From assembly GCA_021294815.2 (NCBI GenBank), contig CP095464.1, forward strand, positions 390,001 to 422,000: a stretch of 32,000 bases of DNA. Reading direction: 5' to 3'. The first letter of the stretch is position 1, and every line of letters starts with the position of its first letter. The notes below the pieces were generated by a model. The model was not told where the DNA came from. It did not search any database and worked only from the letters and a program-made list of their open reading frames with translations. Positions 366 through 19,223 of the stretch are shown here, in pieces. A program made the position numbers and the translations under genes. This stretch comes from Verrucomicrobiota bacterium (GTDB taxonomy: Bacteria > Verrucomicrobiota > Verrucomicrobiia > Opitutales > LL51).

Positions 366-1112
366 ATGGATTTGGATACAACTTTCTCGAGCTACGCAAA
401 TCACACGCCACAAGTCGCCCCTGCTGTGGCAAAAAGCGGTGATTTCACGCAAAAAATTTCAAAAATCGAATCTCCTAAACTGGAACTTGTCAACCTTTCA
501 GCTCCGCTTTTTAAGCGCTTCAGAGCGGATTCTAAAAAGAACCGCATCGTCAGGGCATTGCTCAACCTCTGTAGGCAATACCCTCAACTGGTTCCCGTAA
601 TTCTCGGAATACTTGACCAGTGGACAGATTCTGTCGCCGGAAATCTGAGGGACGCCTTTGTACGTTGTCTTAAAATTCGGGCGATCTCCAAGGAACTTTT
701 TGACCTTCTTTTAGCCATTGATCACATCCTAGAGGTTTGTCAGCAAGGTGGTCCTCTCGCCGAGGCACTGCGTGCGGGTTACACCTATCGAATATTAAAC
801 AATCTCGTCGGCGATAATGGCCTTTCCAACGGTAACCTTGTGGTTGGGCGTTTTCAAGAACTTTTAGCCGTAGCGAGCCGTTATAGACGAGAAAACGTTG
901 TCCTCAAAATCGTTAGGTACTTGAGGAAGCTATGTAAGTCGCCTCAAATGATTCGTATCGCCGACGATGTGCTCTACATCGGCAAATCTCCCAGAATGAA
1001 CGTTGAAAAGAGGACGCATCAACCGATACGTTCCACAAAACCCGCCTATAGACCAACATCACAGCGTTCCCGTGGGGTTTCCATTGTCCAATATGGGCGC
1101 CAATCTAACTGA
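366..1112 (+). CDS. hypothetical protein (248 aa); possibly a distant relative of the P-family repeat
   Basis: The ORF is long and sits behind an extremely AT-rich upstream region (281-365). ELFDLLLAIDHI...GPLAEALRAGY faintly resembles the P-family repeat (L..L.L..SID...P.TP..LKEAI). No known domain recognised. Confidence 0.6.
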   Translation: MDLDTTFSSYANHTPQVAPAVAKSGDFTQKISKIESPKLELVNLSAPLFKRFRADSKKNRIVRALLNLCRQYPQLVPVILGILDQWTDSVAGNLRDAFVRCLKIRAISKELFDLLLAIDHILEVCQQGGPLAEALRAGYTYRILNNLVGDNGLSNGNLVVGRFQELLAVASRYRRENVVLKIVRYLRKLCKSPQMIRIADDVLYIGKSPRMNVEKRTHQPIRSTKPAYRPTSQRSRGVSIVQYGRQSN

Positions 1113-1149
1113 AACACAATTTACACCTTAACAATTAACAAATTATATT

Positions 1150-2490
1150 ATGTTTGACATCGATTTTAATGGTTTATATGGGCAGTAAGTACGCGGAAGC
1201 CCGAAAGGCAGTTACACGCTGGAGAACCACATCTGAAACGATCCAAGCTGGGAACTACACATTTATTGTGACGACACGCCCCGCATCTGAAAGTTTTTGG
1301 AATTCACAAAAAAAGGTGCTTGTGAGCCTAGAGCCGTTAGAGGACGTTTCGTCACCCGTGGCCCTTGCGTTTAGGGATCGCTGGATCGTTGCGAAGTTGC
1401 TCAAAAAAAATCCGGCCCTGTTAAACACAATTTTACAGCTTATCGATTCCATCGACTTCCATTGCTTAACACCTAATGATTTGGGTACGCTCAAGCAACT
1501 GGACAGGATCTATAGCCATTGGAAAATGCCGAAAGAACTCAAAGAATCGCTACGCGAGCACGCTGTCACGGAGATATTGCAAAACCAAAACGCGCTCAAA
1601 TCGGTCTTTGCTTGCATGGATTCTATCAACCCTGCCCATCTGCAAAAGAGAAATAAATGGGCAATGGAACAATTGAGAAAAATTGCCCACAACCCGCAAA
1701 TACCTCTTGCAATCGAGTCGAGGAGACAATCCTTGAGGGAGTCTACGTAGTCGTTAGAGAGATCGGTAATCGCGCGGTAGGATATTTATATGCAATACCA
1801 AGGAGCATTACGGATAAGATGGTAGGGGAAGGCTCTTACACAGTTGATCTAGCTACATCCCGGGAAGACTTTCGAAAAAGGGTCGAGGAAATCAATTTTT
1901 ATGCTCAGAACGAACATTCTCAGAAAGGCATTTCCTTTAATATTCAGCAAAATGGCGACTTCCTCTACTGCGATGTTCCCTTAGATCTCAACCCCTTAGA
2001 TTTGGAAAACGACACATTTTCGCACAATCGCCTTATCGTCTTTAACCAAAAAGTGAATCAAACATAGAATGATAGAATTCCCGAAGAAATGATAAAGCGC
2101 ATCGGTCAGATAACCAAACGGCTAACAGACTACATCAAAAATAAGAGTGACATATCAGAAGAAACAGTCAGCCAATTTGCTCAAGAAATTGAAGAGATTG
2201 CAACAGCTGTAGCCCTTCGCCTTCCCATAATGGACCAAATACGGTTCGAAGAAAGTATACTCTACGCCTTTGGTACCTTACCTAAAGCGGATGACCTATT
2301 TCGCATTTTTACGGGTAAAACCATCGGAGCCCTTCAAAATGTAACACGGACAAAATTGGCTCGCGAGAAAATCGATAAGACACTTCCGCATTGTAGAGCT
2401 GCACTCGAAAAGGCTCAAGCAAAGATTGCTGAAAGTAAACTCATGAGAGGAGCGCATAGACACACGACTGCCACGCGTTTTGCTCGATAA
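1150..2490 (+). pseudogene. P1: disrupted paralogue of the P-family orphan repeat protein
   Basis: ATG at 1150 gives MFDIDFNGLYGQ*, matching the P4 N-terminus MSYIDFNNLYEQLGSKYAE. An 8-nt length difference at about 1180 shifts the frame into ORF 1154..1750. A second frame change at about 1715-1745 leads into ORF 1657..2067. An in-frame TAG at 2065-2067 sits where P3 has TGG (QT*NDRIPEE vs QPWNERTIDE), and ORF 2089..2490 follows. Confidence 0.7.
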
Positions 2491-2539
2491 GTTTCGACGG
2501 TGTCGCCATTGCTGGGTTTAATGTTGTATTATTAAAAAT

Positions 2540-2547
2540 TTTATAAA
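2540..2547 (+). promoter_or_regulatory. TTTATAAA box (possible -10 element), 10 nt upstream of the P2 ATG
   Basis: An exact palindromic octamer within AAAATTTTATAAATAAT. There is no Shine-Dalgarno between the box and ATG 2558. Confidence 0.4.
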
Positions 2548-2557
2548 TAATTGCATC

Positions 2558-5107: not shown

Positions 5108-5124
5108 AGGAGACAAAGATCCCA

Positions 5125-5934
5125 GTGGATTCAACGGATAAAGCGAAGCAGGAACAGAGAGTATCATTTGCCGCAAATGTTGCCATGCAAGTAAAGACCC
5201 CGTTGGCCAAGACAAGAGATAGAAAGAACTGGGAAAATGAACGTAAAGAAGTCGTTGCCGCGAAAAAAGCAGCACGTCCCAAAGATCCTAATCAGCCACC
5301 CTTACTTCAACTTTCCAAACAATTGACCAGTGCTAATGATTCTTTGGAAGTCGTAGTCTCCTCGATAGAGTCCGGGAAGACACCGAACGGGAAAGCCATT
5401 TCAGCGGAGGAGGTCTCTGTTTTAAAGGAGCGAAAAACCGTCCTAGAGGAACAAACGGCTACCATCAAATTAAGATTGAAGTTTCTCAGCATAAAGTGTC
5501 GACTCCAATGCTCGGGGCGCGACTCGCCTTCACAACCCCCGAACACGAAAACGCCTTGGCGAAAAAACAGGATATTCTCAAACAAAAATTGTCTGCTCTA
5601 GACGAAAAACAACGCCGACTTGCGGATAAGGCAACTGTTTCATCGGGAAAAGCGATAGTGTTCTTTCCATTAGACTCGAAAGCCAAAAAGCCGGAACAAC
5701 AGCTGGCTGCTATAAACAAGCGTATAGAAGAGTTGGACAAAGAAGCAGCTGAGTTAGACCAACAAAAGGCTGATCTCGATCAGCAAATAAAAGATTTGAG
5801 TTTCGAATAGACGGCAGAAAAAGCGTCAGATGACACAAACTTCATGGATACACAAAGGTACAATGCCATCAAGAAGCCAGAGGTCATTGCAGCTACCTCT
5901 CGAAAAACACTATTTACCAAATTTCTTTCAATAA
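5125..5934 (+). pseudogene. Decayed C-terminal tail of P2 (coiled-coil-like), split over three frames
   Basis: ORFs 5125..5601 and 5496..5810 are K/E/Q-rich and overlap in different frames. A third frame ends in ...NFFQ* with CAA TAA at 5929-5934. The same terminal codons and the same 18-nt flank occur at the ends of P3 and P4. Confidence 0.45.
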
Positions 5935-5968
5935 CCTTTGACAACACCTCCGGTATTGCTTCTTCCAA

Positions 5969-6075
5969 GGGGTGTCTTGGTTTCGGCTGGGGACCATAGC
6001 GCATCGTCGCATGCCGGAGATGATGGTTAGCTCCGTAAAAATCCATCAAACTACATTAAATGGCCAAGATAGCGC
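5969..6075 (+). pseudogene. Truncated ssrA (tmRNA) 5' fragment, copy 1
   Basis: GGGGTGTCTTGGTTTCGGCTGGGGACCATAGCGCATCGTCGCATGCCGGAGATGATGGTTAGCTCCGTAAAAATCCATCAAACTACATTAAATGGCCAAGATA aligns with 10007-10110 of the intact ssrA. There are 8 substitutions in the first 87 nt. No T-arm or 3' acceptor strand follows. Confidence 0.85.
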
Positions 6076-6186
6076 TGTTGGTCTCAATGCTAGCCTCAAT
6101 ATTCTCAAGTTTCTAAAAATGCTTCGGGATCTCTGCTGCTTTATTTATAAATATTAATTAAAATTTTTCATTGAATTATTGAAAAT

Positions 6187-6194
6187 TTTATAAA
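6187..6194 (+). promoter_or_regulatory. TTTATAAA box, 10 nt upstream of the P3 ATG (a second copy lies at 6144-6151)
   Basis: GAAAATTTTATAAATAATAGCCTT-ATG. Spacing and flanks match the P2 box, and there is no Shine-Dalgarno. Confidence 0.4.
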
Positions 6195-6204
6195 TAATAG
6201 CCTT

Positions 6205-8028
6205 ATGACTGACGTTGATTTTCATAATTTCGATCGGCAGCCCATCGGGCAATATGCAGAGGTCGCAAATATCAAAGCACAACAGATGACCTCATCAAAG
6301 GTTATCGAAGCCGGTAATTATGTGTTTACAGTTACGATGTCCCCGCGCTCCAAGTGGTCCTGGTGGCAACACGAAGAAGGCGTTCTCTCCTTAGGCACCC
6401 CGGACGAGCGAGATATATTTCCAGCTGAAATCCCTTTCAAAAATAAAAAAGAGCTAAGTCAACTACTTCAAGCACCTCAATTGTTGGGAATGACCCTGGA
6501 GCTTATCAGCTGGATCGATTTCGATTATCCGAGAAGAAGTCATCTAGAAGCACTGAATGAATTGAATGAGATTTGCAGAAATCCCCAAGCACCGCTGATA
6601 CTATGTGCATACATCCAAAAGTATCAAGTCTCAGAATTACTCAGCAATCCGGGATTACTCAATTGGACCCTTGGTTTTACAGAATCCATCAATGATTCTC
6701 ATTTAGAATCCAAGGATATCGAATCTGCAAAACACATTGGCGCAGTTATCAGAGCTCCCGGAACCCCCTCTGCAATCAGGGAAATTGCCCTGAAGAAAAC
6801 TTATGCGATTCACAAAGTCGCTATCGGTCGCGCAGTGGAATGTGCCTATGGAATCCCTCAAAAGATTATGAACCAAACTCAGGGCGAGGGCAGTTATAGG
6901 GTTATATATACGCAGCCTAATCAGAAACTCGAAAAGGAACTTCGAGAACACTCGTCGCTTACAAGTACCCTCAGTGCTGCCCGCAATAAAGTAGCAGAAT
7001 TATTTTACCAAATGGGATCTGCCAATTATCACGAGAGACTTGATTCTGCGGTAATAGCTTATAGTGACTTGATTATTCAGGTGCTTGCAGACGGCAAGTA
7101 TAACAAAACAATGGGCAATCGCGCGGTAATTCAGGAGCTCAATGCCAGTAAAGAACGGATCTCCACAACACTGACACAAGAACTTTCAACCTACACAAAG
7201 AATCACTCAGCACTCTGCCAGGACCTTCAAAGTTTTGAAAAAAGGATGAGAGCATTCGAGAATGAACTTTTGCAGGTGCTCCTGCGTGTCCCCAATGGAT
7301 ATCAATACCAGTTGAATATTCAAGAAGCTGAGGGTTTCATGTACTGCGACATTCCCCTCTCCGATGAAATAGAAACGCCATTCGAAACCAATACGCTCAT
7401 TATCGCAGACACGCATCTTGACCAGCCTTGGAATGAAAGAACAATCGACGAAATCAGAGAAGAAATTGTTTTTGTTCGAGGGAAGCTTGAAAAGTACCTA
7501 CAACACTATAAAGGCGGTAGAGTCGATTTAGAAAGTCCCAGTGAATATACACAAAAAATCGCTCAGAAAAGTGTTGAATATACACTCAAACTAATCAGCG
7601 ATTACTTCCCTAAATTGCACCATGAAGCCGAAAAACGCCTATTTATTTGGGATTCAAATAGAATAGACCGAGATGTCCTCAATGCTTTTGGAACCCTTAA
7701 GGCATCCCACCAGAGTAGAACTCCAGGCCAAGAGTTTATACAGAAAATCAATACTGCACTCAATAATCTTGTGATAGAATGGGAGCAGTGTTCGAGGGTC
7801 GCTAAACAGGTAAGAGAAGATCTCATGCCGCAAAAAACAGTTCCAGCGATGCAAATGGAACCTGTAGGGAAACAAACAGATTATATAAACTATACGCGTT
7901 CAAAAGTTGATCAAGACTTCCAGAGACACGTGAATACGTTCATAAATTCCGAAGGGAAAATTGACACAGATAAAACCGTCCCAAGTTTTCAGGATCCGGC
8001 AGCGACATCTATGGACTTCGCCCAATAA
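6205..8028 (+). CDS. P3: orphan repeat protein, 607 aa; the only fully intact family member
   Basis: A single ORF carrying every family block: MTDVDFHNF...YAE, AGNYVFTVT, FKNKKELSQLLQAPQLL, 2 repeats, AVECAYGIPQKI, GFMYCDIPLS (7336-7356), LNAFGTLKAS and the C-terminal FAQ*. No signal peptide. Confidence 0.9.
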   Translation: MTDVDFHNFDRQPIGQYAEVANIKAQQMTSSKVIEAGNYVFTVTMSPRSKWSWWQHEEGVLSLGTPDERDIFPAEIPFKNKKELSQLLQAPQLLGMTLELISWIDFDYPRRSHLEALNELNEICRNPQAPLILCAYIQKYQVSELLSNPGLLNWTLGFTESINDSHLESKDIESAKHIGAVIRAPGTPSAIREIALKKTYAIHKVAIGRAVECAYGIPQKIMNQTQGEGSYRVIYTQPNQKLEKELREHSSLTSTLSAARNKVAELFYQMGSANYHERLDSAVIAYSDLIIQVLADGKYNKTMGNRAVIQELNASKERISTTLTQELSTYTKNHSALCQDLQSFEKRMRAFENELLQVLLRVPNGYQYQLNIQEAEGFMYCDIPLSDEIETPFETNTLIIADTHLDQPWNERTIDEIREEIVFVRGKLEKYLQHYKGGRVDLESPSEYTQKIAQKSVEYTLKLISDYFPKLHHEAEKRLFIWDSNRIDRDVLNAFGTLKASHQSRTPGQEFIQKINTALNNLVIEWEQCSRVAKQVREDLMPQKTVPAMQMEPVGKQTDYINYTRSKVDQDFQRHVNTFINSEGKIDTDKTVPSFQDPAATSMDFAQ

Positions 8029-8071
8029 CCTTTGACAACACCTCCGGTATTGCTTCTCTTCGGGCGAACCT

Positions 8072-8220
8072 GGGGGTGTCTTGGTTTCGACTGGGAACCG
8101 TAACGCATCGTCGCATGCCGGAGATGATGGTTGGCTCCGTAAAAATCCATCAAACTCTATAAATGGCAAAAATCATGTCATCGCGTTCGTCTTCGGTAGC
8201 AGAGGTATGAGCAAAGCCGA
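8072..8220 (+). pseudogene. Truncated ssrA (tmRNA) 5' fragment, copy 2
   Basis: The first 88 nt differ from 10006-10093 of the intact ssrA at one position (G vs A at nt 23). Homology continues through the tag-coding region with about 9 substitutions plus a 1-nt indel. The tag stop is lost (..MSKAERSNIG..) and no 3' half follows. Confidence 0.9.
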
Positions 8221-8305
8221 AAGATCCAATATAGGTTTCTTTTTTCCTCAGCCAGCGATATCAGTCGGTTATTCATTTCGAATTACATTGCCTTTTTAAA
8301 AAATA

Positions 8306-8313
8306 TTTATAAA
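8306..8313 (+). promoter_or_regulatory. TTTATAAA box, 8 nt upstream of the P4 ATG
   Basis: AAAAAATATTTATAAAAAAACGCC-ATG; no Shine-Dalgarno. Confidence 0.35.
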
Positions 8314-8321
8314 AAAACGCC

Positions 8322-9962
8322 ATGAGTTACATCGATTTTAACAATTTATATGAACAGCTTGGCAGTAAGTACGCAGAAGTGCAAAAAGCGGTTACACGTT
8401 GGAGAACTTCATCTGAAACCGTTCAAGCGGGCGAATATGAATTCACGATTACAACACTTCCTGCTTCTGAAGATTTCTGGAGTTCCTCAAAGGTACTCAT
8501 AAGTTCAAAGCCTCTGCAAAAATCTACTATGCAAACTGCGCTGGTTGCCTCAAACCGCAATGAAGTCCAAAAGTTACTGCAGGATCCGGTTCAAGTGAAG
8601 GATATCCTTAAGCTTTTCGCTTTGATCCACTCCGCTGATTGCTCAACCCTTAGAGGGCAGCAGGAAATACTTGGCGCACTCAACGCTCTCAAGTGGACTG
8701 CCTACGAAGACCCAACGACACCGGAAATATTTCGAAAAGTTCTCAAAAAGCAGGCAATTTCAGTACTCCTGCCAAATATAGAACTATTGGAAAGTACATT
8801 CGAACTCATGAACTCAATCGATCCTTTAAAACTAAAGAAGGATGACGTAGCGACAATGACCGCACTCCGTGAGACTGTTGACGATCCTAAAACACCCCTG
8901 TCGCTCAAAGAAGCAGCTAAACAAAAAGTGGTTGATGTTAGCATAGCAATAAATCCTAAAGCAATTGAATGCGATTATGCAATACCTGCGAATATTGTGG
9001 ATAAAATATGCAGCGATAAAAATGGGGCCTATGCGGTTAGGTATAATGCACCCATGGAAGGATTCAGAAGTAAAACTCCAAAAAGATGAAACACGTAGTA
9101 AGGCATTACAGGAAAGTCGGAAAGGAATTGTGGAGTCATTTACTCAATCCAATGGCACAATCGACCAGAACCTTACTGAGAAGATCCAAGCCTATGGAGA
9201 AAAAAATGATCGAGCCACTCATGATGGAAGAAAAAGGCAAATACCCACCATCAATACAGGAATCCTTCCAAACAGAATTAAAAGCCTATGGTCAAAAAGC
9301 CGCCCAAGTACTGCAAGAAGAATTGCAAAACTACAAAGGCGACACTGCATCGCTCGATGATTGCCTCCAAGCTTATGAAAAAAAGATGCGAACATTCATA
9401 AACGAGCTTCTGAAGACCGGGCAATCTTCCTCAACAGTTAATCAAGAGGGAAATTACTTGTATTGTGATATGCCAGTCGATATAGAGGTTATCAAGAGGC
9501 ACGATTATTCCCCGAACGAATTTAATACTGTCGCAGTCGTCAATACATGCTTGCAAGAACCTTTGACCGATAAAACCTTAGATGGTCTCAATGAAGAACT
9601 TAAAAACTCAGAGAACAGCTAACAGATTGCAAAACAAAGGAACAGCTGCAGACAATTGAGGAGCGTTATCAAGAGGTTAATAAGAAATAGAAAACCGCTC
9701 CCAATTTCGCGAACAATGCTTAACAAATTTAGCGACCATGCAGGCTTTCGGACTCCCCGAAGGCGATGATCCATTTAACACCCGAACGACTCCAGCTACG
9801 AAACACCTAACGCAGATGAAGCTTCTGTTTGAAAGGACGGATAAAGAACAAGGAAAATATAGTGCCGAACTTGCCAAAGCCCAAGAAAGACTTGATGCAA
9901 ACAAAGCTGCTCCTCAGCCTCAGGATTCAGCAGCTTTCTCTTCCGCAAACGTTGTTCAATAA
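8322..9962 (+). pseudogene. P4: disrupted paralogue of the P-family orphan repeat protein
   Basis: Family blocks are spread over at least four frames or segments: 8322..9089, part of 8965..9360, 9086..9622, a short segment LREQLTDCKTKEQLQTIEERYQEVNKK*, and 9738..9962. Frame changes lie at about 9060-9070, 9190-9290 (an A7 run at 9200-9206 is one candidate site) and 9600-9740. Confidence 0.7.
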
Positions 9963-10005
9963 CCTTTGACAACATCCCCTCTTTCATTTCCCTCTAAGCA
10001 CGGTT

Positions 10006-10387
<382 letters not shown>

Positions 10388-10489
10388 TATTTTTGTCAGC
10401 GTAATGCTCACTTCCATCCATTCCACAGAAAAATCACCTTCTTCCCAAGAATAAATCTAGAGTCAAAATTTACTTATCTTTTTAAAAAA

Positions 10490-10518
10490 CTTGCATCTTG
10501 TGAAAAACTACTACCCTG
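10490..10518 (+). promoter_or_regulatory. Conserved upstream element of cassette copy 1 (CTTGCATCTTGTGAAAA-N4-CTACCCTG)
   Basis: The 17-mer and the 8-mer recur with identical spacing at 12565-12593, upstream of cassette copy 2. Each is followed by an AAGGAAA Shine-Dalgarno-like sequence and ATG. Function unknown. Confidence 0.35.
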
Positions 10519-10539
10519 CCTCGCTGAAAAGGAAATTTT

Positions 10540-11025
10540 ATGGCTAAAAAAATGAATACTAAAATAAATAAATTGGCGCTCTGCGCGTTGTTGTCGGCGG
10601 GGGGACTGTCTGCAGTGAACGGGGATGACAAAGTTTCGGATTTGCTGGGGAAGGATAGCGTTCAGCTTTTCAATCGATTGCAAACTCCTGAAAGATGTGA
10701 AACAGCACTCAAAAAGGCAGGCAAGTTGCTCGCAAAAGTGAAAAAACAAGAAACGAGGAACGCGCTTACACGCCTCATTGAGAAATTGAATTTTTTGTGT
10801 AATTTTTGGAGCTGGTTCTGCAGTGTCGAACCCGATGAGCTCGATGTTGAGGCAATTTTCTCGGAAGATGTCTCTGGAGATAAGGATCTAAAGAGCGCGG
10901 AAGAATTAATTTTTTTGCGGGACGCCGGCTGGGGAAGACAGGAAGTAAGGGAAGCCAATGAAGACAATGGAGATTGTAAGGACAAATTCGAGAAGCTGCA
11001 GGAAAAGTGTAAAAAGTTCATTTAA
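10540..11025 (+). CDS. small Sec-signal protein (161 aa); cassette copy 1, gene A
   Basis: The N-terminus KINKLALCALLSAGGLSAVNG/DD looks like a signal peptide. It is a paralogue of 12616..13083, sharing FLRD.(G/S)WG and a C-terminal C...C..FI*. The AAGGAAA Shine-Dalgarno-like sequence sits upstream. No known domain. Confidence 0.8.
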   Translation: MAKKMNTKINKLALCALLSAGGLSAVNGDDKVSDLLGKDSVQLFNRLQTPERCETALKKAGKLLAKVKKQETRNALTRLIEKLNFLCNFWSWFCSVEPDELDVEAIFSEDVSGDKDLKSAEELIFLRDAGWGRQEVREANEDNGDCKDKFEKLQEKCKKFI

Positions 11026-11034
11026 TTCCTAGGC

Positions 11035-12516
11035 ATGAAAAGATTCCGGTTTGTTGCATCATTTATGCTTTTCCTCGGGTTGTTCCTTGGAGAAGGTGGT
11101 GAGTGTGACATCTACATCGCGAATGCAGGGGCTGGAAATTGCGCGTTCGTGCGCTTTTCAGCAGGGGATGGTGATGGGAAACAACTCTACCGAGGCCTGT
11201 GGGTTGACTGCGGTTTTGGCAAGAGGGGCTTCTTTCCTAACGGTTTCAGCTCCTCTAAAGAGTGGAATGATGTTGTTGGAGACTACTTTTTTAGAGAGGA
11301 GGGCGTATCGAGGAAAGTAGGAAAAGAAAATGCGATGTTGTGGGTTACGCATTTGCATGATGATCACATCAATGGGATCTTTTCCATCAATAAGAGTGGT
11401 ATGGCAAGGGGGGAAGCGCCTACTAGTAAGGAGATGGCGACGATAAAAAAGGAAGTAGAAGAGCTTGAGAAGGATGAGGATGGAAAAGATGGGGAGTTAG
11501 TAGAGAAGGAGGAGACTAGTGAACTAGAGGAACTAGAGGGGCAGAAAGAAGAAAAAGGGAGAAAGGAGATTGATGTGGGTTCGATTATTGTTGGTATCGG
11601 CGGAAGTAAGGATGGTTTGCCGAAGTCATCAGGTCGAGCGTTGATTAAGACCTCAGAATCGATCAAGGGAATTCTGAAGGATAAAAGTACCGGAAAGGTG
11701 CTAAAGGTCAGAGTTTGGGGAGAAGGAAGTGAAGCATCTGCCAAGTGTGGTGATATATCCAAGGTGGTGGGTAATTTTTGGGGAGATTTCCCTCGTGAGA
11801 ATATCAAGATGGAACCTCTAATCCCTACGGGTGGATATGAACAAGAGCAAGAGAATCTCGAGGCTAATGATACATCGCTGGTTCTAGGGTTGGAGTATTA
11901 TGGGATTAAAGTGCTCTTTCCTGGGGATGCTCCTGGGAAGATGTGCGATTGTCTGAATCCTGATCAGAAAGGCTTTGTTAAGGATGTTGATATCCTTATC
12001 GCACCTCACCATGGGAGCGAAGGGAAAAAGAATAGTTTGTGGTACTCTAGCAACCGAAGGTTTTGCACAATCGTTTCCGGGGACCCAAGTTATAAGGCTT
12101 GGGGTATACCTGGCCTAGCCAATTATGGGGTTAGGAACCATTCAACACGTTTGGAGGCACCAAGAGCCATTTACTATTCCAATGCCCAAAGGAACGAGGT
12201 TTTGAAGAGCGAGATCGAGTTTCCTGTATTTTGCACGTGGGTCGGTATCGAAGATGAAGATGGAAAGGTTGTAGGTGCCCAAAAGTTTGTTGGATATCAT
12301 ATCAAAATAAACAGTAACGGAAACCGAGAGGATGCAGGGAAGATTAAAGTGTTTGAGATTTTATATAATGACAAAGCCAAGGAAAACGAGACGAGGTATC
12401 CTGAAGAAGAGATATATATCGAAAGACTATCCAAGCGTCGGAAGCTAGAGCTATCGGGAACTTCTGTTCTATTCGAGGTCCCTACGGCCACTGGGGGTGG
12501 CAGCGTGGGGCATTAG
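11035..12516 (+). CDS. secreted metallo-beta-lactamase-fold hydrolase, ComEC/Rec2 C-terminal-domain type (493 aa); cassette copy 1, gene B
   Basis: Signal peptide MKRFRFVASFMLFLGLFLG. MBL motifs are present in order: CDIYIANAGAGNC, LWVDCGFG, WVTHLHDDHINGI (HxHxDH), LFPGDAPG, ILIAPHHGSE and FCTIVSGDPS. It starts 9 nt after gene A. Confidence 0.85.
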   Translation: MKRFRFVASFMLFLGLFLGEGGECDIYIANAGAGNCAFVRFSAGDGDGKQLYRGLWVDCGFGKRGFFPNGFSSSKEWNDVVGDYFFREEGVSRKVGKENAMLWVTHLHDDHINGIFSINKSGMARGEAPTSKEMATIKKEVEELEKDEDGKDGELVEKEETSELEELEGQKEEKGRKEIDVGSIIVGIGGSKDGLPKSSGRALIKTSESIKGILKDKSTGKVLKVRVWGEGSEASAKCGDISKVVGNFWGDFPRENIKMEPLIPTGGYEQEQENLEANDTSLVLGLEYYGIKVLFPGDAPGKMCDCLNPDQKGFVKDVDILIAPHHGSEGKKNSLWYSSNRRFCTIVSGDPSYKAWGIPGLANYGVRNHSTRLEAPRAIYYSNAQRNEVLKSEIEFPVFCTWVGIEDEDGKVVGAQKFVGYHIKINSNGNREDAGKIKVFEILYNDKAKENETRYPEEEIYIERLSKRRKLELSGTSVLFEVPTATGGGSVGH

Positions 12517-12564
12517 CCTCCCCCGGGAAAATAACGTAAAAATTCACATGCCTCATTTAAATGA

Positions 12565-12593
12565 CTTGCATCTTGTGAAAAGCCGCTACCCTG
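12565..12593 (+). promoter_or_regulatory. Conserved upstream element of cassette copy 2
   Basis: The same CTTGCATCTTGTGAAAA-N4-CTACCCTG as at 10490-10518. Confidence 0.35.
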
Positions 12594-12615
12594 GGCCGGC
12601 GACAAAGGAAAACTT

Positions 12616-13083
12616 ATGATCAAAATGAATAAATTGGCGCTTTGTGCGTTATTGTTTTCGGGAGTGCTGTCCGCGGTGAACGGAGACCCAGAGGAGGTCA
12701 AGAACCTACTTGGTTTTGATAGCTTCGACCTTTTCAAAGAGCTAAAAACCGGGAGCAAGTGCAACAGTGTGCTCAAGGAGGTTAAGGATTGTCTTGTGAA
12801 GACAGAGGATATAGAAAAAACGGGTCAGCTTCTGTATCTGGCCGGAGAACTGAACTCTTTACGTGAGTTTTGGGCATGGCTTGACGGGGTTGATCCTAAG
12901 ACTCTTAATGTGGAGCAAATTTTTTCAGAAGATGGCCCCGAAGATCAGGATCTGGGAGCTGATAAGAAATTGATTTTCTTGCGCGATGTCAGCTGGGGAG
13001 AGGATGTTGTAGATGAGGGCGGCAATGAAGGCCTAAGAGAAAAATGCGAAGCTCTAAGAACCAAGTGCAGGGGTTTTATTTAA
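12616..13083 (+). CDS. small Sec-signal protein (155 aa); cassette copy 2, gene A
   Basis: Signal peptide MNKLALCALLFSGVLSAVNG/D. Paralogue of 10540..11025. Confidence 0.8.
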   Translation: MIKMNKLALCALLFSGVLSAVNGDPEEVKNLLGFDSFDLFKELKTGSKCNSVLKEVKDCLVKTEDIEKTGQLLYLAGELNSLREFWAWLDGVDPKTLNVEQIFSEDGPEDQDLGADKKLIFLRDVSWGEDVVDEGGNEGLREKCEALRTKCRGFI

Positions 13084-13095
13084 CCCCACGTTGGC

Positions 13096-14412
13096 ATGAA
13101 GAAATTTTGGTCTGTTTTGTCATGCATCGCTGCTCTGCTTGGACTCGTTCCAGGAAGGGGGGATGAGTGTGATATCTACATTGCCAACGCGGGTGCTGGA
13201 AATTGTATTTATGTGCTCTTTTCGGCACAGGACGCCGCCGGGGATCCAGCTAGCCGAGGTCTGTGGGTTGATTGTGGTTTTGGCAAAAGGGGGCTTGTTC
13301 CCGATGGTTGTGCGAACAACGGCTCGTGGGATAAGGTTGTAGAGGACTATTTTTTCTTTGATGGTGCGATATCGCCGTCTTCAAAAGCAAGCAGAAAGGA
13401 TACGATGCTGTGGATTACGCACCTGCACGAAGATCATGTAGAGAGGGTAAACCTGGTCGGTGAATCAAAGCGTCCGGTGAAAGGCAAAAGTGCCAGGTCG
13501 GTGGGCGTTGGTGCTGTCATCGTTGGTGTAGGTGGTGGGAACAATGATTTACCGATGCAAAGCGGTAACGGGAATCTGATTGGGTTCTCAACGCCAATCC
13601 AAGAAATTTTCAATACGGCTCCCCTAAAGGTGAAAGTCTGGGGGACGGGCCATAGTGCGACCGCATCCAGGCAGGCTATAAGGGGAAAGGTTGAGGGATT
13701 CTTAGGGGAGTTCCCTTATAAGGTTGATAGGCGGGAGAATATCAGGTTGAAACCTTTGATTCCTTCAAGTCAGTACAAAGCAACGGAGAAAGGCACGCAC
13801 CAAGTCAATCTTGTAGCTAATGATACATCGCTGGTCCTAGGGTTGGAGTATTATGGTGTTAAGATACTCTTCCCCGGAGACGCGCCAGGGGAAATGCATG
13901 ACTGTCTGAGGAAAGCTGACCGGAAGTTTGTTAAGGATGTCGACATACTCGTTGCACCTCACCATGGGAGTGAGGCGGAGAGGAACGGTTCGTGGTACTC
14001 CAGCAACCGGAGGTTTTGTACGATCATCTCCGGAGACCCGAGTTATTCAAACTGGGGGCTGCCGGTCCTAGCCAGTTACGGTGTCAGGGATAATTCGATA
14101 TATCTTAAGGACAAGAGGTCCATTTACTACTCGAATGCGTTGAAAGAAGTTTGCACCCTTAAAACTCGAGTGCCTGTTTTTTGCACGTGGGTCGGTGTCG
14201 AAGATAAAAATGGAGAGGTTGTAGGTGCTGAAAAGTTTGTCGGGTACCACATCAAAATCAACAGCAAAGGCGGGAGAGAGGATGCGGGGAAGATTAAAGT
14301 GTTTGAGATTTTATATGACGGAGCAAAAGCAGGTAGGGCAAGATATTCAGAAAAGGAGATAAAGATCGTCAGGGAAAAGAAAACAGATCAAAGGAAGTGC
14401 CTGTTACTTTAG
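13096..14412 (+). CDS. secreted metallo-beta-lactamase-fold hydrolase, ComEC-type (438 aa); cassette copy 2, gene B
   Basis: Signal peptide MKKFWSVLSCIAALLGLVPG. Motifs: CDIYIANAGAGNC, WITHLHEDHVERV, LFPGDAPG, ILVAPHHGSE. Paralogue of 11035..12516 but lacks its E/K-rich insert. Confidence 0.85.
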   Translation: MKKFWSVLSCIAALLGLVPGRGDECDIYIANAGAGNCIYVLFSAQDAAGDPASRGLWVDCGFGKRGLVPDGCANNGSWDKVVEDYFFFDGAISPSSKASRKDTMLWITHLHEDHVERVNLVGESKRPVKGKSARSVGVGAVIVGVGGGNNDLPMQSGNGNLIGFSTPIQEIFNTAPLKVKVWGTGHSATASRQAIRGKVEGFLGEFPYKVDRRENIRLKPLIPSSQYKATEKGTHQVNLVANDTSLVLGLEYYGVKILFPGDAPGEMHDCLRKADRKFVKDVDILVAPHHGSEAERNGSWYSSNRRFCTIISGDPSYSNWGLPVLASYGVRDNSIYLKDKRSIYYSNALKEVCTLKTRVPVFCTWVGVEDKNGEVVGAEKFVGYHIKINSKGGREDAGKIKVFEILYDGAKAGRARYSEKEIKIVREKKTDQRKCLLL

Positions 14413-14497
14413 AGAGGGTTGCGATGAGTTTTGCAAAGCTTTCCAGGTTCCGGAGTAGGGCCAGCCTTTCGTCGGGTTTCGCCGTAAAAGACTAAGA

Positions 14498-14517
14498 CGC
14501 GCCTCCGAAGAGGTGCG
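14498..14517. terminator. Hairpin between convergent genes; bidirectional terminator candidate
   Basis: CGCGCCTC-CGAA-GAGGTGCG forms an 8-bp stem with one G.T pair. On the minus strand it is followed by TCTTAGTCTTTTAC. Confidence 0.5.
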
Positions 14518-14545
14518 CTGTTATGAACTTAATATCGTCAAATAA

Positions 14546-15856
14546 CTAAAGATGTGCGATTGCGCTTTCGATATCGAGGAGTGCAATTCTAAGTTTGATG
14601 AAGGCGTCTTCTTGTTCTTGTGTAATGCGTTGTGCATCGACACTCATGAAATCGCGGATTTTTGCGATGTTTTCTTGGATCGTAACACGAGATTCTGCTA
14701 CAGTCTTGGCCATTGTCCAACCTTCGGAAGTGGTACATGGTCCTTTAAGCCCCCCTTCGGTAACACTTGTGGGGACAGCTTCCGTCGCCGAATTCGCTGC
14801 CGTATTGATCGCAGAAAGACAGTCACCAATCTCTGTAGCTGCACTGAGCTCTGCTGCACTGGCTCCGGTCACGAGCGTTTTCACTTCTTCGTACTGTTTC
14901 TTAATGGTGTCACAGTCCGCTTTCGATACAGTAAATGTTAGGTCTTTCACTTTCTCGTTTTTTGTGGCAGCATTTTCAATGGCAGTCATCACGGCTAAAC
15001 GCTTTGCGCCATCGGCAATCCGCCAAATGTAATCAATTGCGGCATAGTTGTAGGCGTCGGGTTTCGTGAGGTCGAGCTTGTAACGCGTATCTGCACCGGC
15101 AATCTCTGCCGCTGTCTTATGGCAATCATCACATTCAAGGACACTACCACAACTAGGACATTCCGTTGTGAGTGTTTGCCCGCTGTCTGAAATTGGAGCG
15201 AAATTCGGTGATAGAACAACTTCGACAACAGTTACCTCGCCTTTCATTACTGCGATGTGAAAAATCGTCCGCCCCAGATAGTCTTCCGAGTTGAGATTGA
15301 TATTCTTTGCCTTTAATAATATGCGCAAAGGGTTGTCGTTATTCGTTGAATTCAGAAGCCAGCTTTCGCCATAGTACTTCGCCGCAAAGAACAATGGCGA
15401 TTCGCCATTCATCGTACGGCGGTTGATGTCGATACGGCCATCGTCGACAATTAATTGCAAACACTTCGCCGAATTGATCGCCGCCGCGTGCGCCGCATTA
15501 TAGCGTAAAATCGTTTCCGCCGTGACGCTCGCATTTGTGTTCTTTAAGATCGAATCCAGTGCATCAGGCAAACTACTGCAAGCCGCCAAAATGATCGCCG
15601 GAAGCCGAAATCCAACAAGTACCTTCGTGTTAGGGGCATTGCCCTTTGCTCCGACTACAGTATTGAGCAAATTATCGAGTTGATCGATGGCATATTCCGT
15701 GCCGCTGTACCAGAAACGCGCCGCTCTCTTTTGATCACTATCCCACGTGCTGATTTGTGGAATGGCGACACTTGGTGTTAGTACGCTGGCGTTGTTTGCA
15801 TTTGAGACATTGAGAGATCCCAATAGTAAAAATGACGCTAAATAACGTTTATCCAT
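14546..15856 (-). CDS. secreted ankyrin-repeat protein (436 aa)
   Basis: Signal peptide MDKRYLASFLLLGSLNVSNA. ANK-like repeats include NGESPLFFAAKYYG...LLKAKNINLNSEDYLGRTIFHIAVMKGEVTVVEVVL. It also has a CxxC-x6-CxxC knuckle (CPSCGSVLECDDC). Confidence 0.8.
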   Translation of the reverse strand: MDKRYLASFLLLGSLNVSNANNASVLTPSVAIPQISTWDSDQKRAARFWYSGTEYAIDQLDNLLNTVVGAKGNAPNTKVLVGFRLPAIILAACSSLPDALDSILKNTNASVTAETILRYNAAHAAAINSAKCLQLIVDDGRIDINRRTMNGESPLFFAAKYYGESWLLNSTNNDNPLRILLKAKNINLNSEDYLGRTIFHIAVMKGEVTVVEVVLSPNFAPISDSGQTLTTECPSCGSVLECDDCHKTAAEIAGADTRYKLDLTKPDAYNYAAIDYIWRIADGAKRLAVMTAIENAATKNEKVKDLTFTVSKADCDTIKKQYEEVKTLVTGASAAELSAATEIGDCLSAINTAANSATEAVPTSVTEGGLKGPCTTSEGWTMAKTVAESRVTIQENIAKIRDFMSVDAQRITQEQEDAFIKLRIALLDIESAIAHL

Positions 15857-15879
15857 CCTATTTCCCTTCCCCTTAAATT

Positions 15880-16593
15880 TTAATTTCCTGACATGATCGG
15901 CTCTCGTACCGTGTTAAATGCATTCTGCAACTCTGTAAATTTGGTGTCATTGGTAATGTTATTGACCGTATTTTTATGTTCTATAATTTTGACCAATAAC
16001 GCTGGTGTCTCGCCGCGTTTGTTAGTCGATTCAAGGTCGAGCTCTTCCCCATAAAGTTCGATAATCTTTCGAGCAGCAACGTAATTCCCCGCCTTAATGG
16101 CGACCATGAGTGCTGTATCGCCCTCCCGATTTTTTCGGTTAATATCAAGACGATTATCCTGCTGCAGGAGCATAATATTTGTCATCTTATTTTCATCAGA
16201 ATTAAGAGCTGCTTCATGCAACGCTGTCCAGCCCAGAGAAGTCTCAAATGGAATGATCATATCATTCGTTCCCTCCAATAAAAGTTGTAGGTAGGTTTTC
16301 GAATCGGTGCCCGACTTAACACTATTGCTTGCAGCCGCAAAGAGCGCAATTGGTAAATAATATCCAAAGTAAACCATCGAATTCGCATCCGTGCTTTTCG
16401 CGAATAAGTTTTTTAAAGTTTCAGACTGGTCGCCCATCAAATCCGTGACCTTGTAAACCGTTTTACCGATTGCGATCCGTGCATCTAAAAGTCGACGATC
16501 ATTCCAACTTTTAAAGCAGGGAACACTTGCCTGTGTGTATGCGGCAAGACCCAATATCACCCCACCGATTGTTATCAGTTTTTTCATACCCAT
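15880..16593 (-). CDS. secreted ankyrin-repeat protein (237 aa)
   Basis: Signal peptide MGMKKLITIGGVILGLAAYTQA. ANK repeats include GWTALHEAALNSDENKMTNIMLLQQDNRLDINRKNREGDTALMVAIKAGNYVAARKII...TNKRGETPALL. Its N-terminal region is paralogous to 14546..15856, and a 23-nt gap to that gene suggests an operon. Confidence 0.85.
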   Translation of the reverse strand: MGMKKLITIGGVILGLAAYTQASVPCFKSWNDRRLLDARIAIGKTVYKVTDLMGDQSETLKNLFAKSTDANSMVYFGYYLPIALFAAASNSVKSGTDSKTYLQLLLEGTNDMIIPFETSLGWTALHEAALNSDENKMTNIMLLQQDNRLDINRKNREGDTALMVAIKAGNYVAARKIIELYGEELDLESTNKRGETPALLVKIIEHKNTVNNITNDTKFTELQNAFNTVREPIMSGN

Positions 16594-16727
16594 CCGGGCC
16601 GGAATTTGTAAATATACTTCAAATTGTCAACACAAAGTTTAATATTTTTTGAAATCGCTCTCTTTGGGTCTACGATTTCTCGATTGATTCAAGTCGATAG
16701 AACACTTTGATCTGAGGTAAAGTTAGC

Positions 16728-17978
16728 ATGGATTCCCAAAAAGATTTACCACACGTTGATCCCGAGGTCGCCGCAATTATCGAACGCGAACATCAGCGCC
16801 AAGAAGAGCACCTCGAGCTCATTGCCTCTGAAAATTTCACCTCGCCCGCCGTTATCCAGGCAGTCGGCAGTGTTTTGACAAACAAGTATGCCGAAGGTTA
16901 TCCCCAAAAGCGCTACTACGGCGGCTGCGAATTTGTCGATCAGGTCGAGTCACTGGCCATCGAACGGGCAAAACAGCTCTTTCACTGCGAACACGTCAAT
17001 GTACAACCTCATTCAGGAACCCAAGCCAATGTCGCGGTCTATTTGAGCTGCCTCAGCCCCGGGGACCCCATCTTAACGATGTCACTCGAGGATGGTGGCC
17101 ATCTAACCCATGGATACAGCAAAAATATCAGTGGGATGCTGTATCGGACGACGCACTACGGTGTTCATCGAGAAACCGAATTTATCGATTACAACGCCCT
17201 CGAGGAGCTCGCCAAAACCGTCCAACCGAAACTAGTGACCATCGGTGCCTCGGCTTACGCCCGGACAATCGACTTTGAGCACGTTGCAGATATTGCCCAC
17301 CGCCACGGTGCACTTCTAATGGCCGATATCGCCCATATTGCGGGACTTGTCGCGACTGGCCTTCACCCCTCGCCCGTACCGTTTACAGACTTTGTGACGA
17401 CGACAACTCACAAAACGCTTCGCGGCCCTCGCGGTGGGATGATTATGTGCAAAGAAGCGTTCGCTAAACGTATCGATTCGGCGTTATTTCCCGGGACACA
17501 AGGGGGGCCGCTGATGCATGTCATCGCCGGAAAGGCGGTCTGCTTTAAGGAGGCGCTTTCTCCGGAATTTCGCACCTACCAGGAACAGATTTTGCGCAAC
17601 ACAAAAGCACTTTGTACCGCAATCCAGCAGCGCGGTTACCGCATCGTCAGCGGTGGAACTGATAACCACCTTTTCTTGGTCGACTTACGCGCAACGCTCC
17701 CCGACGTCAGCGGCAAGGATGCCCAGATGGCCCTCGAAAAAGCCAACATTACGCTGAATAAAAATACCGTTCCCGGAGAAACCCGGAGCCCCTTCCAGGC
17801 CAGCGGTTTGCGCATTGGCTCTCCCGCAGTTACGACACGGGGTATGAAGGAACCCGAAATGCTCCAAATCGCCGAATTTATCGATACCGTTTTGAGGAAT
17901 CTCAATAATGACACCATCATTGCTACGGTCCGTGAACGCGTTATTGCACTCACCAAACAATTTCCTCTCCCCTATTAA
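16728..17978 (+). CDS. glyA: serine hydroxymethyltransferase
   Basis: Full-length match to the SHMT pattern: [42 protein letters not shown], and the PLP-lysine motif [18 protein letters not shown] lies 12 nt upstream of the ATG. Confidence 0.97.
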
Positions 17979-18018
17979 GCATTGCCAAAACGCAATCATC
18001 GGTTAGTGTCGCCAGCGG

Positions 18019-19086
18019 ATGGATGGGAAGTTGTATTGTCAATTCGTTGGTGTTGCCGGTTGGGCGTTATTTTTAGGCATTCTCCCGACGAGGGCTTTGG
18101 GATTAAATCCCATGCCCAGGCAGCTCGTTAAAAATATCGGGAAGGAAGCATCGCCGCAGAAACGTGCAGAGGTTTTGGGCAAAAATGCGTTCGAAATTCT
18201 TTGGGCCGAGCGCAACGCTTTCTTCAAAAGTATCATTCAACAAGAAACCAGGGAACAATCTACGGAAGCAGCGACTCCAGCACTATCGGTAGCCGCAGAG
18301 GTAACAGCCTCGGCGGCCGAAACCGATCCGCCACCGCCGCCAATCTCTGTGCTTTACCGGACGATTTTGAAGAAAAACTTCGCTTATCTTGAGGAAATGT
18401 ACGGGCAGCCGGTCCCAGCAGATAAACACGACGAGCTCTTCAATGCCGTTCTCGAACAGGTACTGCCATTCGCGGACGCTACCGATCGAATCGATACATT
18501 TTTGGCCCCATTCCTCGGCAATTCCCAGGAAGTATTTGAACGCCTCAAGACTATCGCCACGGATTATTCCAAGCATCTGAAGATTACCGATCGCAGCATC
18601 TACGGCCCACGATTCGAGCAGTTTTACTACAAAATGAATCTCGAAGGAGGGCGTTTTCAACAGATCGCTCGCGGAGCCTGTGCTAACGAGCTTTTTCGCT
18701 ACGCTCAGGAGTTTCTTGCGCACGAATACAACGCGATCCATAAACAACACCCCGAGATTGAAACAACTGCAATTACGCAAAATCTCGGCCGCCTTGTGCT
18801 CCAAGTCGTACTACCCATCGCCTCACGTTATGGTGTACTGTGGGCAATGTTGGGGAGGTTTCGCAAAAACAATAAGGAAAGTACCGAGGATCTGCAGCGT
18901 GAACTAAAGCAAAATGCCCCAGCGCTTGTACACCTCAAACCAACCGATCAGGTGGGGGAAACTTTTTGGTCCCGACAGGCACAACAGGTATTGTCGGATT
19001 GCCGTAAAGCCGCTCACGATTACGTCGAAATCTTCCAGAAAAAATCGCTATTCCACAACCTCGGTTCCCCCGTTGATGCGCTTTAA
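18019..19086 (+). CDS. hypothetical protein (355 aa) with an N-terminal hydrophobic segment
   Basis: Long ORF with an N-terminal FVGVAGWALFLGILP segment and a Pro-rich linker (ETDPPPPPIS). No known domain recognised. Confidence 0.7.
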   Translation: MDGKLYCQFVGVAGWALFLGILPTRALGLNPMPRQLVKNIGKEASPQKRAEVLGKNAFEILWAERNAFFKSIIQQETREQSTEAATPALSVAAEVTASAAETDPPPPPISVLYRTILKKNFAYLEEMYGQPVPADKHDELFNAVLEQVLPFADATDRIDTFLAPFLGNSQEVFERLKTIATDYSKHLKITDRSIYGPRFEQFYYKMNLEGGRFQQIARGACANELFRYAQEFLAHEYNAIHKQHPEIETTAITQNLGRLVLQVVLPIASRYGVLWAMLGRFRKNNKESTEDLQRELKQNAPALVHLKPTDQVGETFWSRQAQQVLSDCRKAAHDYVEIFQKKSLFHNLGSPVDAL

Positions 19087-19162
19087 GACTTATTAAAGTC
19101 GAGCTCTACCGATTATCTCGTTTCAACGAATTTAGGCAAGCAGTTAGATTTTCCCAAAAGCA

Positions 19163-19200
19163 AATTCCTCGCCCTGGATTTTTCTCCAGGATGAGGAATT
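19163..19200. terminator. Strong bidirectional terminator hairpin between convergent genes
   Basis: AATTCCTC-GC-CCTGGA / TCCAGG-AT-GAGGAATT gives 14 bp with a small internal loop. It is flanked by T-rich runs on both strands (TTGTTAT, and TTGCTTTTGGG on the minus strand). Confidence 0.65.
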
Positions 19201-19223
19201 TTGTTATCATTTAATGTTTAACT

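Follow-up and report, generated by a model that had tools for sequence, protein, structure and literature searches.

A tandem pair of two-gene cassettes downstream of ssrA in an Opitutales bacterium encodes predicted-exported ComEC-type metallo-β-lactamases with small orphan partners

We analysed a window of 32,000 nt (the whole stretch of DNA under study, positions 390,001 to 422,000 of contig CP095464.1) from a Verrucomicrobiota bacterium of the order Opitutales, in which ssrA, the gene for transfer-messenger RNA (tmRNA), is followed by two tandem copies of a two-gene cassette. Each cassette consists of an upstream element, a gene for a small protein with a predicted export signal (A1 or A2), a gap of 9 nt (cassette 1) or 12 nt (cassette 2), and a gene for a larger, likewise predicted-exported metallo-β-lactamase (MBL; B1 or B2). 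This layout had been described in a first-pass annotation of the same sequence, and open reading frames (ORFs), ARAGORN and Rfam place all of its parts at the positions claimed (Table 1). The paralogy of the cassettes lies, by sequence comparison, far beyond chance: A1 and A2 are 47% identical (E 6e-41), and B1 and B2 are about 55% identical (58% and 52% across two blocks; E 1e-106), their main difference being an acidic insert of ∼45 aa in B1. The upstream element, too, is conserved as proposed. Its two copies are 76% identical over 55 nt and share an exact 18-mer core, ACTTGCATCTTGTGAAAA, which occurs at only these two sites in the window (0.05 expected by chance) and is found likewise 5′ of A in two related contigs, L001 and L002. 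No match to the sigma-70 consensus was found on the + strand of the element. A Shine-Dalgarno-like AAAGGAAA precedes A, and none is obvious before the B start. That B begins 9-12 nt past the A stop codon without a Shine-Dalgarno sequence of its own suggests that translation of the two genes is probably coupled, at a fixed A:B proportion. Stop-codon readthrough to an A-B fusion was rejected, as by coordinate arithmetic A and B share a frame in the window and L001 and differ in frame in L002 and L003. The segment 10001-15000, which holds the tmRNA gene and the cassettes, has a strongly positive GC skew (+0.13 to +0.40), while the skew of the 10-kb flanks on either side is negative or near zero; the maximum, at 11001-12000, falls on the Glu-rich insert of B1.

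Table 1. Features of the cassette locus and its neighbours (positions in the window).
Feature	Position	Strand	Description
ssrA (tmRNA)	10006..10388	+	ARAGORN; Rfam RF00023, 147.8 bits, full length; tag peptide GKDNVIALDFGSGVMSKAA; left landmark
Upstream element, cassette 1 (promoter/5′ leader region)	10481..10535	+	Direct repeat; ends in Shine-Dalgarno-like AAAGGAAA
A1	10540..11025	+	ORF, 161 aa; predicted-exported small orphan protein
B1	11035..12516	+	ORF, 493 aa; predicted-exported ComEC-CTD/Pce-type MBL phosphodiesterase (CTD, C-terminal domain); acidic insert after motif II
Upstream element, cassette 2	12556..12610	+	Direct repeat of the cassette 1 element
A2	12616..13083	+	ORF, 155 aa; predicted-exported small orphan protein; paralogue of A1
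B2	13096..14412	+	ORF, 438 aa; predicted-exported ComEC-CTD/Pce-type MBL phosphodiesterase
Ankyrin-repeat neighbour, 436 aa	14546..15856	-	Pfam Ank_2 1e-10; signal-peptide-like N-terminus; syntenic context, outside operon
Ankyrin-repeat neighbour, 237 aa	15880..16593	-	Pfam Ank_2 1.3e-9; signal-peptide-like N-terminus

Both copies of B carry the full ComEC/Rec2-type MBL motif set that had been read from the sequence. The putative metal ligands of B2 are D59 in motif I, H109, H111, D113 and H114 in motif II, N242 in motif III, D262 in motif IV, and H289 and H290 in motif V; all nine are invariant in an alignment of five close B sequences, and the HLHxDH, GDAPG and PHHGS motifs are invariant in the close family. 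Motifs III-V are kept in 16 family members, with N242, D262, H289 and H290 invariant or nearly so in 14-16 sequences that include ComEC. Motif II reads HLHDDH in B1 and HLHEDH in B2, the canonical HxHxDH, and takes the ComEC-like form HTDDDH or HMDKDH in Puniceicoccales relatives. When a B-family profile was compared with PDB sequences, ComEC/Rec2 came out on top (9vcb, 9vcf and 9ic4; E ∼1e-5), with weak matches to the Pce structures 1wra and 2bib below it. In the ComEC alignment N242 (ANDTSLV) fell on the ComEC Asn (NNGSCV in 9vcb and 9vcf), and the hydrophobic N-terminus of B on the last ComEC transmembrane helix, which precedes the MBL domain. PADLOC MBL models matched B at 1e-5 to 1e-7 over ∼60-70 residues, in the NxxSLV..GD..HHGS region.

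A word-indexed search of 5.8 billion proteins returned only four B relatives, and HMMER, run exhaustively with a profile against 1.84 billion representatives, gave 261 matches at E < 1e-3, 11 of them below 1e-10. Full-length relatives share a signal peptide followed by D-h-Y-h-x-N-V-G-x-x-N-C, and further the signatures (T/S)H-x-(H/D)-x-DH, L-x-P, N-x-x-SLV, GDAPG, PHHGS and GYH-x-x-I. The weak matches cover just residues ∼240-330; ComEC proteins are among these homologues, some of 750-810 aa being matched near their C-terminus. The true ComEC matches P0159, P0160 and P0163 carry PF03772 and PF13567. Pfam found neither Competence (PF03772) nor DUF4131 in B1 and B2, which have a single N-terminal hydrophobic segment. 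Lacking the channel and the oligonucleotide/oligosaccharide-binding (OB) domain, B is thus not a ComEC protein; it is a free-standing member of the ComEC-CTD/Pce branch of MBL phosphodiesterases. The earlier assignment to a free-standing, ComEC-type MBL agrees with the profile matches to ComEC/Rec2, the ComEC homologues and the Asn at motif III.

Modelling of B2 by AlphaFold2 with five close sequences gave an unusable result (predicted local distance difference test, pLDDT, 31) and was rerun with a more diverse alignment of 14 sequences, from which we obtained a model with a predicted template-modelling (TM) score of 0.75 and a core pLDDT of 75-90. In this model B has the αβ/βα fold of the MBL superfamily. 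Foldseek returned Pce/CbpE (1wra/2bib) as the only strong matches (E 6e-9, probability 1.0), with a TM-score of 0.41-0.55 (0.55 on the target) and 11-12% identity.

The mature part of A comprises ∼132 aa (∼133 aa in A1) and is rich in helix-favouring residues; A1 has five Cys after the signal peptide. Comparison of A with Pfam, NCBIfam, PADLOC, PHROGs and PDB sequences yielded noise only (YfdX 0.07, AlgP 0.05, IF1 0.46). One relative was found in the 5.8 billion proteins, and more copies were recovered from the genomic contexts of B; at the level of sequence, A has no detectable relative outside its clade. In a six-sequence alignment of A, two Cys are invariant, and W86, W88 and an IFS-x(7)-D-x(6)-L-x-x-LRD-x-x-WG block are among the other conserved features. 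The isoelectric point (pI) of A is 4.5-5.5 in most sequences and 8.6 in L001, that of B 5.3-8.9.

Export was assessed with a home-made score of hydrophobicity, charge and the (-3,-1) positions. Signal-peptide-like N-termini were scored on all A and B members, on both ankyrin neighbours and on distant relatives, and the score was negative on glyA, the gene for pyruvate:ferredoxin oxidoreductase (PFOR) and an orphan control. The N-terminus of A is positively charged, has a hydrophobic core 11-14 residues long and carries small residues at -3 and -1. By this N-terminal heuristic A and B look exported, in keeping with the Sec-type signals reported for them. A free-standing, exported ComEC-type MBL is not unusual in itself: 38 of 82 free-standing distant B relatives have signal-peptide-like or transmembrane-like N-termini. 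Because such proteins are common among the distant matches, this kind of enzyme is already known, though largely uncharacterised.

The order ssrA-A-B-ankyrin protein(s)-glyA recurs in three contigs, one from an Opitutales metagenome-assembled genome (MAG; L001, where the tmRNA gene also lies upstream of A) and two from assemblies of public sequencing runs (L002 and L003). A true A is found upstream of B in these three and in L004/L005, a pair of loci described below. In three distant Puniceicoccales loci (L006, L008 and L009) the gene directly ahead of B is co-oriented with it and encodes a hydrophobic N-terminus. In L006 and L008 this is a small, signal-peptide-bearing ORF that overlaps the B start. 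When all ORFs of ten sequences were searched with a hidden Markov model (HMM) of A, these two were the top non-family matches (E 0.077 and 0.095), and a motif at the equivalent position, EIEKIYxxQGASDTxE..NIIFLxExR, resembles VExIFSEDxxxDxDL..KLIFLRDxxWG of A, which makes homology to A plausible. In L009 the upstream ORF, of 262 aa and with a hydrophobic N-terminus, stops 36 nt short of B; no similarity between its product and A was detectable. An ankyrin gene with a signal-peptide-like N-terminus directly follows B in L008. L007 is not assessable, because its contig ends. A predicted-exported upstream partner is thus conserved by position in every assessable locus. The strict pairing that had been proposed from the two cassettes extends to other genomes, with A adjoining B throughout the clade.

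The named full-length B relatives come from MAGs of Opitutales and Puniceicoccales and from one Rickettsiales MAG. The module is accessory, as had been surmised, and lineage-restricted: in the large protein searches it is confined to a few gut members of these two orders and the Rickettsiales MAG. Past two Puniceicoccales MAGs, genome and metagenome scans for B gave generic ComEC-type core matches only. No relatives of A or B were found in phage and plasmid collections, where the sole plasmid match was a ComEC, and a mobile-element origin of the pair was rejected on these grounds. An anti-phage defence system was likewise rejected, as the matches to MBL models were partial and sub-threshold and partner genes were lacking.

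To describe selection on the module, we used Nei-Gojobori estimates of the ratio of nonsynonymous to synonymous substitution rates (dN/dS). These were 0.46-0.58 for A, about 0.3-0.38 for B (0.2-0.4 over all comparisons) and 0.075-0.15 for the MBL core of B, vs 0.06 for glyA of the same genome pair. A and B are under purifying but relaxed selection. Positive selection was rejected, because no window or segment had a dN/dS significantly >1 (binomial p >= 0.27). Of the diversifying pressure previously suggested for the module, the raised dN/dS and the recombination mosaics stand, but dN/dS never significantly exceeds 1 and the MBL core is strongly constrained. In recently shared segments the corresponding ratio of the proportions of differing sites (pN/pS) nears 0.6-1.0. 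Between the window and L001, L002 and L004, the amino-acid differences in such segments are mostly of kinds such as E>K, D>N, G>E/R/S, V>I and A>V, which reflect G:C to A:T transitions, a pattern that fits the AT-biased mutation of a shrinking genome and not adaptation.

Sharp mosaic boundaries are visible in the synonymous divergence (pS). The single B of L001 consists of a B1 5′ half (pS ∼0.02) and a B2 3′ half (pS 0.00), so that the window and L001 differ by exactly one repeat unit of ∼1.9 kb, a difference that could reflect unequal crossover or assembly collapse of the repeat. Between B of L002 and B1, the first ∼210 codons are saturated and the last ∼200 codons have a pS of ∼0.05, with ∼0.8 for glyA of the same genomes. 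In L004/L005, A2 and the 5′ end of B2 are joined to a B1-like 3′ end; this B is broken by an internal deletion that removes motif II, and the ankyrin genes are truncated. Past the 3′ end of B, L002 (2328-2525), L004 (1697-2044) and L005 (10898-11245) carry short ORFs that are C-terminal relics of a third B type. The C-terminus of this type, also present in the protein P0005, reads MICPVLCTWDKEK..GYHIKIDSD.., and in L004, L005 and P0005 ends in a hydrophobic tail, RHWWSSH.SAFVGIASFLLGGFCGA.LWAASH, perhaps a C-terminal membrane anchor, absent from B1 and B2. Collectively, the module is functional, relaxed in constraint, and exchanged piecewise between copies and lineages.

Several features of the genomes point to a eukaryotic host. 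In P0010, a 611-aa protein of the Puniceicoccales MAG LBF34, the C-terminal half of B is fused to a ubiquitin C-terminal hydrolase (UCH) deubiquitinase (Pfam, E 3.6e-36). Deubiquitinases are typically directed at eukaryotes. The B part of P0010 has motifs III-V without motif II, and P0165, in the same cluster as P0010, is named 'ubiquitin C-terminal hydrolase' in its JGI source. The window itself encodes PFOR, a marker of anaerobes, together with many orphans and ankyrin proteins predicted to be exported, and its contig measures 878 kb. On a 1.23-Mb contig of Tritrichomonas musculus, the annotation lists a 239-aa protein fragment with 74% identity to B, and the B fragments in this contig are 94% identical in DNA. 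Verrucomicrobial endosymbionts of gut protists with genomes of ∼1 Mb, some of them intranuclear, are documented as the 'Nucleococcus cluster' (PMC8204192). With this precedent, the 878-kb contig, the ankyrin and UCH proteins and the T. musculus fragments suggest that the source bacterium is probably a protist symbiont with a reduced genome, and that its host is probably a parabasalid. The literature searched describes no bacterial symbiont of T. musculus.

The T. musculus locus, L005 (JAPFFF010000024.1, region 1000-20853, assembly GCA_039105265.1), has an unusual structure. An AT-rich block (GC 18-33%) with two actin genes and a BspA-like leucine-rich repeat ORF, identified by eye, adjoins a bacterial-like block of at least 11 kb (GC 42-53%) that is syntenic with the window: A, the broken B, a B remnant, ankyrin, glyA, and onwards to PFOR. 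The tmRNA gene is absent. The junction lies inside gene A, in the signal-peptide cleavage region, and creates a 646-aa in-frame fusion with an AT-rich P-loop protein. L004 (CARKBU010000067.1, 1-10723), a bacterial MAG contig, matches L005 across the same junction at 99.99% identity. The junction may represent symbiont DNA in the protist nucleus, a eukaryotic island in the symbiont chromosome or a shared assembly artefact. Beyond the actin block, at 43-897 of L005, lies a GC-rich ORF (∼50% GC, 284 aa) with RCC1-like repeats recognized by eye (GxNxxGQLG) and no similarity to the window.

Among known systems, B is closest by sequence profile to the CTD of ComEC/Rec2, which is a Mn2+-dependent endonuclease and 5′-3′ exonuclease. 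The domain has been characterized as an extracellular Mn2+-dependent phosphodiesterase/nuclease with Asn in place of His at motif III and Asp in place of one His in motif II (Silale et al., PMC8579336). With the ComEC/Rec2 CTD (Moorella CTD; 9ic4, 9vcb, 9vcf; PMC8579336, PMC12455585) B shares the NxxS(L/C)V...GD...PHHGS core with the motif III Asn, the bridging Asp and the His pair, a hydrophobic helix before the domain, and a location (predicted for B) on the extracytoplasmic side; distant B relatives add the H-x-D-x-D-H form of motif II. Unlike ComEC/Rec2, B is fused to neither channel nor OB fold, has HxHxDH in B1 and B2, contains lineage-specific inserts and is ∼100 aa longer; it is also paired with a small, predicted-exported protein, duplicated and confined to gut Opitutae, and its activity is putative. 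Pce/CbpE, the teichoic-acid phosphorylcholine esterase of Streptococcus pneumoniae, is a secreted MBL phosphodiesterase that acts in host interaction and has HxHxDH as B does. It differs from B in the His at motif III and in a module of choline-binding repeats, and the B model that links the two is of moderate confidence. Free-standing COG2333-type MBLs, including LmuA-MBL, PDC-M48B, the DRT-associated MBL and Avs1a, have the same C-terminal core (1e-5 to 1e-7), with matches that span just B residues ∼235-330 and score far under the family cut-offs. Unlike the defence MBLs, B has no NTPase, reverse-transcriptase or other defence partner, its neighbours being ankyrin genes, glyA and ssrA, and its N-terminal half and C-terminal extension are conserved and common only to the Puniceicoccales and Rickettsiales relatives. 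Two-gene pairs of a hydrolase and a small, usually acidic partner are familiar from barnase-barstar, NucA-NuiA and the colicin DNase-Im proteins. Inhibitors of this type are cytoplasmic, lack signal peptides and are usually encoded downstream; A, in contrast, is predicted to be exported, is encoded upstream, is not uniformly acidic and matches none of them in Pfam and PDB searches.

The reading that we favour, at about even chances, is that B is an extracytoplasmic and probably host-directed phosphodiesterase, most likely a nuclease, and that A, exported along with B and coupled to it in translation, serves it as a chaperone/inhibitor or as an adaptor. A Sec signal or anchor at its N-terminus, directly next to the first β-strand of the predicted fold, would take B across the cytoplasmic membrane. 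By analogy with the ComEC CTD, and presumably with a metal at the active site, it would cut phosphodiester bonds, nucleic acid being the most probable substrate; its site of action would be extracytoplasmic, either the periplasm or a host compartment, and its role the scavenging of nucleotides or phosphate or action on host material. A, helical by composition, would be a stoichiometric partner that binds B as a periplasmic chaperone or inhibitor or serves as a targeting or substrate adaptor. The module evolves fast: homologous recombination between the copies and between co-occurring lineages duplicates, deletes and swaps it piecewise. A bolder form of this reading, which we regard as rather unlikely, places the bacterium inside trichomonad cells, possibly in their nuclei, as a 'Nucleococcus-like' Opitutae symbiont, with A and B as an effector pair aimed at the host. 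B would then be a ComEC-derived nuclease that is exported into the host compartment and there harvests nucleotides from host nucleic acid or cuts it, and A would restrain or target B; along with the ankyrins, and with deubiquitinase fusions in relatives, the module would form part of a symbiont 'secretome island' shuffled between co-resident lineages, and the locus beside actin and BspA-like genes on the T. musculus contig would be a symbiont-to-host DNA transfer.

Several points weigh against an exported, host-directed nuclease with a dedicated partner. Motif II of B1 and B2 is of the HxHxDH form rather than the HxDxDH typical of ComEC, and the nearest fold to the B model is an esterase, Pce, not a nuclease, so that the fold does not settle the substrate. 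The Pfam and NCBIfam MBL models are sub-threshold on B (Lactamase_B, E 0.09; Avs1a, 15-17 bits against a cut-off of 420, and 6A-MBL, 14 against 220). For A, alignment to the L006 and L008 partners with hhalign is statistically marginal (E 0.03-0.06 over 29-31 columns, probability <2%), and a role as DNA mimic or as a protein charge-complementary to B found no support, because A is not consistently acidic. The host association is drawn from MAG provenance and one protist assembly. The first two of these points would suit an esterase or phosphodiesterase like Pce whose substrates are non-nucleic phosphodiesters, for instance glycans decorated with phosphocholine or phosphoethanolamine or the head groups of host phospholipids; it would remodel the bacterium's own surface or host membranes with A as an accessory. 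We regard this as unlikely. In its favour, Pce/CbpE is the best structural match to B (E 6e-9, TM 0.55 on target), Pce (1wra, 2bib) is weakly matched in sequence as well, and motif II is as in Pce and not as in ComEC (PMC8579336). Against it, ComEC outranks Pce in sequence profiles, the motif III residue is the Asn of ComEC rather than the His of Pce (PMC8579336), and choline-binding repeats were not found in B by Pfam. Moreover, a crystal study of the ComEC domain named Pce as the nearest structural neighbour of that true nuclease as well (PMC12455585), and the fold match therefore cannot discriminate a nuclease from an esterase.

That both products carry predicted export signals, as in effector/immunity pairs that act in the periplasm, would also be expected if B were an interbacterial toxin directed at the periplasm or nucleic acids of competitors and A the periplasmic immunity protein. 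The tight coupling of the two genes, their diverged duplication and raised dN/dS, the swap of the B 3′ half between lineages and the C-terminal B remnants in L002, L004 and L005 could then be the traces of an arms race as in polymorphic toxin loci. We consider this improbable, since no Rhs, PAAR, VgrG, CdiA or LXG domains were found in B or the scanned neighbours, the partner lies upstream and not downstream, and dN/dS is never >1. The swapped halves, moreover, belong to the same enzyme at 58-70% identity, with catalytic motifs that straddle the swap point, and are not alternative toxin domains, and both the ankyrin neighbours and the UCH fusion partner point to a eukaryotic target. The closeness of B to the ComEC CTD plus its preceding membrane helix, and the fact that ComEC proteins without an MBL domain are common (PMC6299819), would fit a split ComEC, in which B supplies the strand-degrading nuclease in trans to a channel without CTD, for DNA uptake or nucleotide salvage via competence. 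This is quite improbable: the full-length B family is limited to a few gut Opitutae MAGs and does not track the distribution of ComEC, its genes are duplicated, mosaic and fast-evolving, unlike housekeeping competence genes, no competence genes were found in the 32-kb window, and endosymbionts often lose ComEC altogether (PMC6299819). Finally, the genes might be non-functional relics, duplicates decaying in a reductive genome, as the broken copy in L004/L005 (motif II of B deleted, ankyrins truncated, remnants present) and the approach of pN/pS to 0.6-1.0 in recently shared segments would have it. All four ORFs of the window are intact, however, with invariant metal ligands, conserved Shine-Dalgarno and upstream elements, and dN/dS values of 0.2-0.4 overall and 0.075-0.15 in the core, which makes decay very improbable.

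What is new here is a lineage-restricted B subfamily with an N-terminal half and a C-terminal extension of its own, its obligatory orphan partner, the tandem duplication, the mosaicism between lineages and the probable symbiont context; the enzyme class of B is itself already known, and the function of B is putative. Should B prove to be an exported nuclease or phosphodiesterase, the strand-degrading part of the DNA-uptake machinery would have been freed from its channel and reused as a secreted, fast-diversifying tool by gut-protist-associated bacteria. If this is true, the module would be a candidate for how symbionts with reduced genomes gain nucleotides or act on host nucleic acids, and A would be a new orphan partner protein. 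The locus also offers a compact natural case of tandem duplication, probable unequal crossover and exchange between lineages, and it ties an Opitutales lineage of the mouse gut to T. musculus, a commensal of immunological importance.

The location beside ssrA, which had been counted among the signs of an accessory module, does not indicate an integrated island. The tmRNA 3′ end occurs as a single copy, with no att-like repeat when up to three mismatches were allowed (<=3), and no integrase was found among the scanned ORFs of the window. The ssrA-A-B-ankyrin-glyA synteny is kept between divergent lineages in which glyA is saturated at synonymous sites. On this evidence, together with the missing phage and plasmid relatives, an ssrA-integrated genomic island was rejected. 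The start of ssrA is itself repeated: the region upstream of the gene (with a 35-nt box, CAATAACCTTTGACAAC...) and the first ∼100-195 nt of the tmRNA occur three times, at 5929-6071, 8023-8217 and 9957-10152, spaced by 2104 and 1934 nt. Downstream of each partial copy is a lineage-specific orphan (6205-8028, and its split paralogue at 8322-9089 and 9086-9622); these duplicated orphan genes may have captured the ssrA promoter. The second unit is missing from L001. Across 366-9622 and 18019-22007 of the window, nearly all ORFs (248, 198, 849, 158, 607, 255, 178, 355 and 927 aa) have no Pfam family, an orphan content that is unusually high for a genome of ∼0.9 Mb. Counting the A-B duplication, ssrA lies within a nest of ∼2-kb tandem duplications.

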